Assembly: GCF_003334315.1 (NCBI RefSeq)
Contig: NZ_QOWR01000072.1
Strand: one strand, 5' to 3'
DNA length: 18,167 bases
DNA from: Escherichia coli
GTDB lineage: Bacteria; Pseudomonadota; Gammaproteobacteria; Enterobacterales; Enterobacteriaceae
Below the pieces are notes generated by a model that ran no database searches, had not been told where the DNA came from, and saw nothing but the letters and a program-made list of their open reading frames with translations. Positions 78 to 1,419 of the stretch are shown in pieces (the first letter of the stretch is position 1; every line of letters starts with the position of its first letter). A program made the translations under genes and the position numbers.

Positions 78-203
78 TTCCGGAGCCTGTCATACGCGTA
101 AAACAGCCAGCGCTGGCGCGATTTAGCCCCGACATAGCCCCACTGTTCGTCCATTTCCGCGCAGACGATGACGTCACTGCCCGGCTGTATGCGCGAGGTT
201 ACC
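78..203 (-). mobile_element. IS1 remnant (internal insB fragment only)
   Basis: Minus-strand translation running down from ~203 reads [36 protein letters not shown], which I recognise as the internal part of IS1 InsB. Similarity decays below ~85 and stops at 203 where the IS3-family terminal repeat begins. No insA or IS1 terminal repeats are present in the window. Confidence 0.7.
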
Positions 204-241
204 TGCTCCCCGTTGATTAATACACCGTGATGTTAGTAATG
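199..241 (+). repeat. Left terminal inverted repeat of the IS3-family element
   Basis: TTACCTGCTCCCCGTTGATTAATACACCGTGATGTTAGTAATG pairs imperfectly with the reverse complement of 1378-1419. Confidence 0.6.
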
Positions 242-269
242 TCTTCATAAGCCACATGAGGACATCCCC

Positions 270-533
270 ATGAAGAAGCGTTTTTCCGACGAACAGATCA
301 TATGTATTCTCCGCGAGGCCGAAGCTGGCGTTTCTGCCCGTGAGCTCTGCCGTAAGCACGCCATTTCCGACGCCACCTTTTACACATGGCGTAAGAAGTA
401 TGGCGGTATGGAGGTGCCTGAGGTTAAGCGCCTGAAGTCGCTTGAGGAAGAGAACGCCAGACTCAAGAAGCTGCTTGCTGAAGCCATGCTGGATAAGGAG
501 GCGCTTCAGGTGGCTCTTGGGCGAAAGTACTGA
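270..533 (+). CDS. IS3-family transposase OrfA (HTH DNA-binding subunit)
   Basis: 87-aa ORF MKKRFSDEQIICILREAEAGVSARELCRKHAISDATFYTWRKKYGG... followed by a leucine-zipper-like heptad stretch (EVKRLKSLEEENARLKKLLAEAML). This is characteristic of IS3-family OrfA, IS407-group-like from memory. ATG start at 270. Confidence 0.9.
   Translation: MKKRFSDEQIICILREAEAGVSARELCRKHAISDATFYTWRKKYGGMEVPEVKRLKSLEEENARLKKLLAEAMLDKEALQVALGRKY
497..533 (+). other. orfA/orfB overlap window for the expected programmed -1 ribosomal frameshift
   Basis: The orfB frame opens after TAA at 494-496 and orfA stops at 531-533. The only Lys-codon slip candidate in the window is CGA AAG at 522-527 (A AAG). The exact slippery site cannot be assigned with confidence from sequence alone. 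Confidence 0.45.
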
Positions 534-556
534 CGACAGACCAGAAGCGGGAAGCC

Positions 557-1390
557 GTGGAAGTCATGTGCGAGGCTAAGGGTCTGTCGCAACGTCGTGC
601 CTGCAGGCTGGCAGGTCTGTCCCTGTCAACCTGCCGATATTCGGCTCAGCGTCCGGCTGCTGACGCGCAGCTGTCTCTACGCATCACAGAGCTGGCACTT
701 GAACGCCGCCGTTTTGGTTACCGGCGTATCTGGCAGCTTCTGCGACGTGAAGGTCTTTGCGTTAACCACAAGCGGGTTTACCGCATCTATCAACTTAATG
801 GCCTGAGTGTAAAACGCAGACGACGTCGTAAAGGGCTGGCAACAGAACGTCTGCCGCTGCTCCGCCCGATGGCGCCCAATCTGACCTGGTCAATGGATTT
901 CGTCATGGACGCACTGGCCACAGGTCGCAGGATCAAGTGCCTGACCTGCGTGGATGATTTCACAAAGGAATGCCTGACGGTCACTGTTGCCTTCGGGATT
1001 TCAGGCGTGCAGGTCACGCGTATTCTGGACAGCATTGCACTGTTTCGCGGCTATCCGGCTACGATAAGAACCGATCAGGGCCCGGAGTTTACCTGCCGCG
1101 CACTCGATCAGTGGGCTTTTGAGCATGGTGTGGAGCTGCGACTTATCCAGCCCGGCAAGCCAACGCAGAACGGATTTATTGAGAGTTTTAACTGACGCTT
1201 TCGTGATGAATGCCTGAATGAGCACTGGTTCAGCGATATTGTTCACGCCAGGAAGATCATTAATGACTGGCGACTGGATTATAACGAGTGTCGACCACAT
1301 TCATCACTGAATTACCTGACGCCGGCTGAATTTGCAGCGGGCTGGCGAAACGGGAAATATGAAGAAAAACCAACCGACATTACTAACTGA
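557..1390 (+). pseudogene. IS3-family transposase OrfB (DDE integrase domain) interrupted by an in-frame TGA at 1193-1195
   Basis: The ORF reads ...TDQGPEFTCRALDQWAFEHGVELRLIQPGKPTQNGFIESFN then TGA, and the same frame continues RFRDECLNEHWFSDIVHARKIINDWRLDYNECRPHSSLNYLTPAEF to the stop at 1388-1390. In IS3-family transposases the conserved block is ESFNG(R/K)(F/L)RDE, so the stop sits exactly where a Gly codon is expected (GGA to TGA, one substitution). GTG at 557 is the first in-frame start; the real protein is normally made as an OrfAB fusion. Confidence 0.8.
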
Positions 1391-1419
1391 AGGTTGTATC
1401 TAACTCTGGGGGCAGGTCA
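1378..1419 (+). repeat. Right terminal inverted repeat of the IS3-family element
   Basis: Reverse complement is TGACCTGCCCCCAGAGTTAGATACAACCTTCAGTTAGTAATG. It shares the terminal block and the exact 10-mer GTTAGTAATG (1378-1387 = CATTACTAAC on the plus strand) with the left end. Confidence 0.6.

Follow-up and report, generated by a model that had tools for sequence, protein, structure and literature searches.

A truncated trlF gene and stacked insertion sequences form a scar beside a type 1 BREX cluster in Escherichia coli

The present analysis concerns the left end of an 18,167-nucleotide stretch of E. coli DNA (RefSeq assembly GCF_003334315.1, contig NZ_QOWR01000072.1), the whole of which is called the window here. 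From the left, it carries the right end of an IS100 element, an internal fragment of IS1, a full-length copy of ISKpn34, the 5' remnant of a trlF gene, and then an intact brxL, the last gene of a type 1 BREX cluster that extends to about position 17651 (Table 1). Each of these elements is a known one, and for identical DNA the RefSeq annotation already includes the same pseudogenes.

Table 1. Features at the left end of the window, with positions numbered from its first base.
Feature	Position	Strand	Remarks
IS100 (IS21 family), right end	1..77	+	ends …CGTCGTTGACA; cuts the IS1 remnant at IS1 position 452/453
Internal IS1 fragment (insB region)	78..203	-	IS1 positions 452→327; no IS1 terminal repeat
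TTACC junction zone	199..203		reads as IS1 positions 331-327 and as the start of ISKpn34 (canonical TGACC)
ISKpn34 (IS3 family), full length	199..1419	+	1221 bp; G→T at position 2; nonsense codon in the orfB frame
Transposase pseudogene, orfA (270-533) and orfB (to 1390)	270..1390	+	programmed frameshift; RefSeq CDS of identical copy
TGA stop replacing GGA (Gly) in orfB	1193..1195	+	within conserved …NGFIESFNGRFRDE… motif
trlF 5' remnant (TrlF-family AAA-like ATPase)	1420..1597	-	178 of 2652 nt, from the ATG at 1597
brxL, intact, last gene of the type 1 BREX cluster	1641..3716	-	ORF list and RefSeq annotation of identical DNA

The first 77 bases are those of the right ends of three complete, 1954-bp copies of IS100, identical as far as the last base of their terminal …GTTGACA; past this point the three copies diverge from each other, which places the end of the element at base 77. 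The junction at 77/78 was not seen in any of the genomes or plasmids that were compared. The six bases that follow it, TTCCGG, are the same as those duplicated at an unrelated IS100 copy in plasmid pN373. An earlier note on this DNA, made from the sequence alone, had missed both the IS100 end and the nonsense codon at 1193, while it correctly set the end of the IS1 sequence at 203 and read the left flank of the next element as GAGG.

The assignment of bases 78–203 to IS1, also made in that note, is well supported: 124 of the 126 bases are identical (98.4%; blastn, E value 1.7e-62) to positions 327–452 of IS1. This identity to IS1 of the IS1A/IS1B type covers part of insB only, and in contrast to a complete IS1 the fragment lacks both terminal repeats, insA and most of insB, and lies between IS100 and ISKpn34. 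In relatives of the window without IS100, the remnant is 442 bp long (IS1 327–768) and includes the right repeat. RefSeq labels the 78–203 stretch in related genomes as a partial IS1 transposase gene. A 125-aa InsB′ ORF is also called in intact IS1 copies and was thus uninformative for finding further contexts.

ISKpn34 is an element of the IS3 family, probably of its IS407 group, with which its TGACCTGC… ends and 4-bp duplications agree; a literature search on it gave only surveys in which the element is listed. Nine independent copies, carried by plasmids of Klebsiella, Raoultella and E. coli, served for comparison, and all are 1221 bp long and run from TGACCTGCTCC to GGGGGCAGGTCA. The window copy aligns with them from end to end and departs from them at only 4–5 positions (5–7 differences in the comparison with eight of the plasmid copies). 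Set against these eight, the differing positions are 2, 128, 841 and 995, and also 864 against some of them. It shares with ISKpn34 the same length, an identity of 99.6% to annotated copies, the frameshifted orfA/orfB arrangement and the right end …GGGGGCAGGTCA, but differs in having TT rather than TG as its left dinucleotide, in the nonsense codon within orfB, and in the lack of a 4-bp duplication. All three pieces of its transposase match the NCBIfam model transpos_IS3, and nonetheless the change at IS position 995 produces the TGA at 1193, with the loss of the last 65 residues of OrfB. The label that RefSeq gives to an identical copy is 'ISKpn34 family transposase; programmed frameshift; internal stop'.

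The right end of the element, …GGTCA, is intact. Its left end reads TTACC where the canonical start is TGACCTGCTCC, so that the terminal 5'-TG…CA-3' of the inverted repeats is missing, both from the window and from all 14 related, junction-bearing loci that were read. The terminal TG of IS3-family elements is needed for cleavage. Since the TG is now TT and an intact transposase gene has been lost, this copy can be regarded as dead and should be immobile.

To the right of ISKpn34, homology to trlF begins exactly at 1420, and the earlier observation that sequence beyond the right end is unrelated to IS1 was confirmed. In E. coli cq9 an intact trlF lies between brxL and the mobH/traD genes of an ICE, and at the insertion point reads …AACAC/CATCTACTG…. 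From 1420 onwards the window is collinear with this syntenic locus, with 98.3% identity over 1420–2300. The gene downstream of brxL has indeed lost its 3' part, as had been proposed, and what is left matches the N-terminus of the TrlF family, which is related to the anti-phage protein Ppl (NCBIfam TrlF_fam_ATP, E value 2.7e-10, compared to 7e-167 for the intact 883-aa protein of cq9). With NCBIfam NF045780, which has a cut-off of 350 bits, the remnant scores 39.6 bits, as befits a fragment, and the syntenic intact gene scores 557.8 bits; an intact TrlF relative also matches the Ppl entry of PADLOC (9e-41). Compared with an intact TrlF-family ATPase only 59 codons remain, and the gene is therefore non-functional. 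These 59 codons, together with six from the right end of ISKpn34, make up a 65-aa ORF at 1400–1597 (minus strand) that is annotated as 'hypothetical protein' WP_023063792.1, and which is a chimera and an annotation artefact.

TrlF is destroyed by this arrangement and BREX is untouched. A promoter effect of ISKpn34 on the BREX genes would not be expected, because the element is read in the direction of brxL, a gene of the opposite strand. In related genomes, RefSeq annotation shows a DUF262-domain gene between brxC and pglX (window 10059–11822, minus strand), and a WYL-domain gene at the start of the cluster (window 16725–17651, minus strand). This layout presumably resembles the BREX and type IV restriction island of plasmid pEFER.

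The two flanks of ISKpn34, GAGG on the left and CATC on the right, had been described as lacking the direct repeat of 3–4 bp expected from simple transposition. This holds at the revised boundaries as well: no 3- or 4-bp repeat was found with the left boundary set anywhere within 199–204 and the right boundary at 1418–1419. A matching repeat of this kind, or evidence that 78–203 is not IS1, had been put forward as findings that would refute the original description, and neither was found. ISKpn34 copies with intact flanks do show 4-bp duplications (GTTA, ATCG, AGGT and GAAG), as does ISSen4, an element 89% identical to ISKpn34 (CACT and CTCG). A duplication is present in four of the nine surveyed ISKpn34 copies and absent from the other five, so its absence is not unusual for this element. 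The right junction, GGTCA/CATC, has the form of a clean transposition junction. Since the two flanks derive from different loci, a secondary deletion or recombination is required.

Some further observations were made on ISKpn34 targets and their relatives. A possible target motif (GRAGTTA-like flanks at loci L002 and L030) was dropped, the duplications being in different registers. At L002, in a plasmid of K. michiganensis, the left flank of ISKpn34 (ctgtatgcgggaagtta) and the stretch of IS1 found at the window junction (ctgtatgcgcgaggtta) agree at 15 of 17 bases; the gene in this flank carries no IS1 annotation, and the right flank is similar to the element's own right repeat. Both likenesses may be due to chance. 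In a plasmid of E. coli MS 115-1 (L013, 2428–3648), an IS1 that is complete in other respects is interrupted 24 bp from its left end by ISSen4, which is bordered by a clean CACT duplication, indicating that relatives of ISKpn34 do land in IS1.

At the left junction, the five bases TTACC can be assigned to either element, as they match IS1 in full and the start of ISKpn34 with one mismatch. An intact IS1 at this site reads …GCGCGAGGTTACCGACTG… (containing GAGGTTACCGACTG), and the window reads …GCGCGAGGTTACCTGCTCCCC…; the double reading arises because the second base of the insertion sequence is T and not G. The left repeat was formerly placed just after 203, which proved to be imprecise: ISKpn34 begins at 199, and 199–203 are shared by IS1 and the element. 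The IS1 stretch that was lost past the junction also matches the left repeat, in register, at 11 of 20 bases, and only 0.2% of IS1 positions do as well, a resemblance that is not significant when the five junction bases are left out (7 of 15).

Several other forms of the junction were searched for. The variant left junction GAGG-N0-6-ACCTGCTCC gave 0 matches in species-representative genomes and 0 in JGI metagenomes. A G-type left junction would read GCGCGAGGTGACCTGCTCC. An ISKpn34 within an intact IS1 at this site would read …GCGCGAGG/TGACC… and …GGTCA/GAGGTTACCGACTG…. The reciprocal junction, in which IRR is followed by IS1 positions 326→1 and which would read GGGGGCAGGTCA, 0–4 bases and TTACCGACTGCGG, was present in none of 72,556 plasmids or 5,426 E. 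coli genomes. Nor was there a trlF-left/IRL junction, that is, ISKpn34 in trlF with a left CATC flank, for which a simple insertion would give the flank CAACACCATCTGACCTGCTCC; and the ancestral state, ISKpn34 in trlF with both copies of CATC, was not found.

The identical IS1Δ–ISKpn34–trlF′–brxL block is present in 5 of 5426 complete E. coli genomes, always in the chromosome, and these come from Ecuador, Norway, China and elsewhere. In the assembly collection, the index lists the chimeric 65-aa ORF for 457 blocks, and each of the ten contigs that were read showed the same block. Thirteen of the loci have a full ISKpn34; there the element equals the window copy or differs from it only at position 385 or by an 8-bp gap, and the nonsense codon is therefore retained in all of them. 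Matches in Salmonella plasmids that covered window positions 201–1700 turned out to be arranged differently.

To the left of the block, the carriers vary, with at least five different sequences past the right repeat of IS1. The 442-bp IS1 remnant is itself a mosaic among loci L009–L012, in which the differences lie 70–182 bp from the junction in L011 and more than 248 bp away from it in L010, and this implies repeated recombination or conversion of the remnant with other IS1 copies. The variable sequence beyond the IS1 end, and the finding that a brxL region of the window type is present in only 56 of 5426 complete E. coli genomes, agree with the earlier proposal that the structure marks an edge of accessory DNA.

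An informative relative is the chromosome of E. coli EC2641 (L012, 3122–4342), where the identical IS1Δ–TTACC junction is found on a hybrid of ISKpn34 and ISSen4. Up to IS position 280 this element matches the window copy without a single difference, and beyond that it is ISSen4. The crossover can be placed between positions 225 and 280, as the window copy and canonical ISSen4 are already distinct at 18 positions in the stretch up to 224. The right end of the hybrid borders on CTCG, and two relatives, EH09-18-41 and 44, have this site without an interruption. This is direct evidence and shows that homologous recombination between insertion sequences has re-flanked the IS1Δ junction at least once. 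The window shares with textbook cases of such recombination, known for hybrid elements and lost duplications, the mismatched flanks and, in EC2641, a hybrid on the same junction, but the altered left terminus and the 5-bp overlap with IS1 are not explained by recombination of this type alone.

The structure is an ordinary inherited scar, in which three known insertion sequences are stacked beside a BREX island, and the join on its left probably arose by deletion at a short homology rather than by transposition. The history that we favour, with a probability of about one half, consists of two events, the insertion of ISKpn34 into trlF and a subsequent illegitimate join at a short homology. In the first event, ISKpn34 would have transposed into trlF next to brxL, producing the right junction that is seen today. 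In the second, which would not have been the work of the transposase, IS base 3 would have been joined to internal sequence (position 327–329) of an IS1 further to the left by way of the short homology ACC (within TTACC in IS1 and TGACC in the IS), so that the join lies two bases in from the original left end of ISKpn34. Lost in this step would have been bases 1–2 of ISKpn34, the left copy of CATC, the remaining ~2.4 kb of trlF with whatever followed it, and positions 1–326 of IS1. The block so formed was then inherited, or spread, as a unit among E. coli, as its present carriers show, and the recombination of its IS1 remnant with other IS1 copies changed the sequence to the left, as the mosaic remnants display. 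Finally, IS100 would have landed in the IS1 remnant in the lineage of the window, where its boundary is visible. We infer the order of these steps, because the ancestral state was not found.

This two-event route is favoured because it requires fewer events than its main competitor (two against about four), accounts directly for the overlap, fits the 11/20 resemblance of the lost IS1 stretch to the left repeat (weak without the junction bases), and because no reciprocal or G-type junction was seen, although the missing reciprocal junctions are negative evidence from limited collections. At the level of sequence it resembles the illegitimate recombination of E. coli at short homologies (microhomologies), or alternative end-joining, in that 3–5 bp are shared and a few terminal bases are lost. 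It does not account for the nearness of the breakpoint to the end of the element: an endpoint just 2 bp inside a 1221-bp element is a coincidence, of about 0.2–0.4% if endpoints are random, and can be removed only by assuming that the break occurred at the IS end. The EC2641 hybrid also weighs against the two-event route, since it shows that homologous recombination between insertion sequences acts on this very junction, which is the core of the rival history.

In that rival, one ISKpn34 would have gone into an intact IS1, at GAGG, and a second one into trlF, at CATC. Recombination between these two direct copies would have deleted everything between them and left a single element with mismatched flanks, with the G→T change at IS position 2 coming later, either as a point mutation or by gene conversion from an intact IS1 (GAGGTTACC) that extended a few bases into the element. 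We regard it as possible but rather doubtful. The EC2641 hybrid, whose right junction is clean and occupies a site found empty in relatives, shows that this kind of exchange has happened to the IS1Δ junction. The duplication is absent in 5/9 ISKpn34 copies, several carrier plasmids hold 4–7 matching places, the mosaic IS1 remnant indicates that conversion with other IS1 copies occurs, and the related ISSen4 has been caught with its CACT duplication in the left end of IS1. The cost is about four events, among them an insertion at a site that by chance matches TGACC at four of five bases, as 2% of IS1 positions do, and a change that hit precisely IS position 2 and gave precisely the base of IS1; furthermore, neither the reciprocal nor the G-type junction was found.

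A deletion made by the transposase itself is, in our opinion, improbable. Here the left end of ISKpn34 in trlF would have attacked a site within a nearby IS1 and deleted the intervening DNA, with the G→T change following afterwards. A single event would account for both the missing duplication and the precise right junction, and this is the mechanism that the earlier note had in mind. However, it would leave the terminal TG intact, and as TT is present in every copy read, an extra change that restored the continuity of IS1 would be needed. IS3-family elements transpose by copy-out and paste-in via a circle, and adjacent deletions are not a normal product of this pathway. The broader proposal of an IS-mediated deletion or recombination is supported, as the flanks come from different loci and EC2641 offers a parallel; it is the strictly transposase-made form that is not favoured, the left terminus not being intact. 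An artefact, whether a mis-join of repeats in assembly (to which IS-rich regions are prone) or a base-calling error at T 200, can be dismissed, since the same junction, with T at IS position 2 and TGA at 1193, recurs in five complete chromosomes from different countries and in 10/10 contigs.

Across lineages, at least five distinct breakpoints, in which different insertion sequences are involved, fall in the 5' end of trlF, equivalent to window positions 1420, 1423, 1441, 1443 and 1567 (drawn from the window, L016, L017, H70 and H71–H98). The breakpoint at 1443 is the end of an IS3-family element with the terminus TGAAGTGG, and that at 1567 is listed for 28 plasmid records. At all of them brxL is intact, and they may point to a hotspot or just reflect selection that keeps the BREX cluster whole. 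A bolder reading, which we consider unlikely, is that the first ~220 bp of trlF are a recurrent breakpoint zone where BREX cassettes have repeatedly been cut from their original ICE, and that the left junction of the window would be the footprint of a break at an ISKpn34 end that was repaired by short-homology end-joining, a process rarely documented for the IS3 family.

Only two aspects of the locus are even mildly unusual: the left terminus of ISKpn34, which is truncated by 2 bp and overlaps IS1, and the clustering of independent breakpoints in the first ~220 bp of trlF. The scar has little importance beyond annotation. It dates and delimits the left edge of the BREX island, shows that a Ppl-like TrlF gene has been destroyed and that the adjoining copy of ISKpn34 is immobile, and accounts for the spurious 65-aa 'hypothetical protein' in many E. 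coli assemblies. The junction that its carriers have in common is a convenient lineage marker for this BREX cassette.
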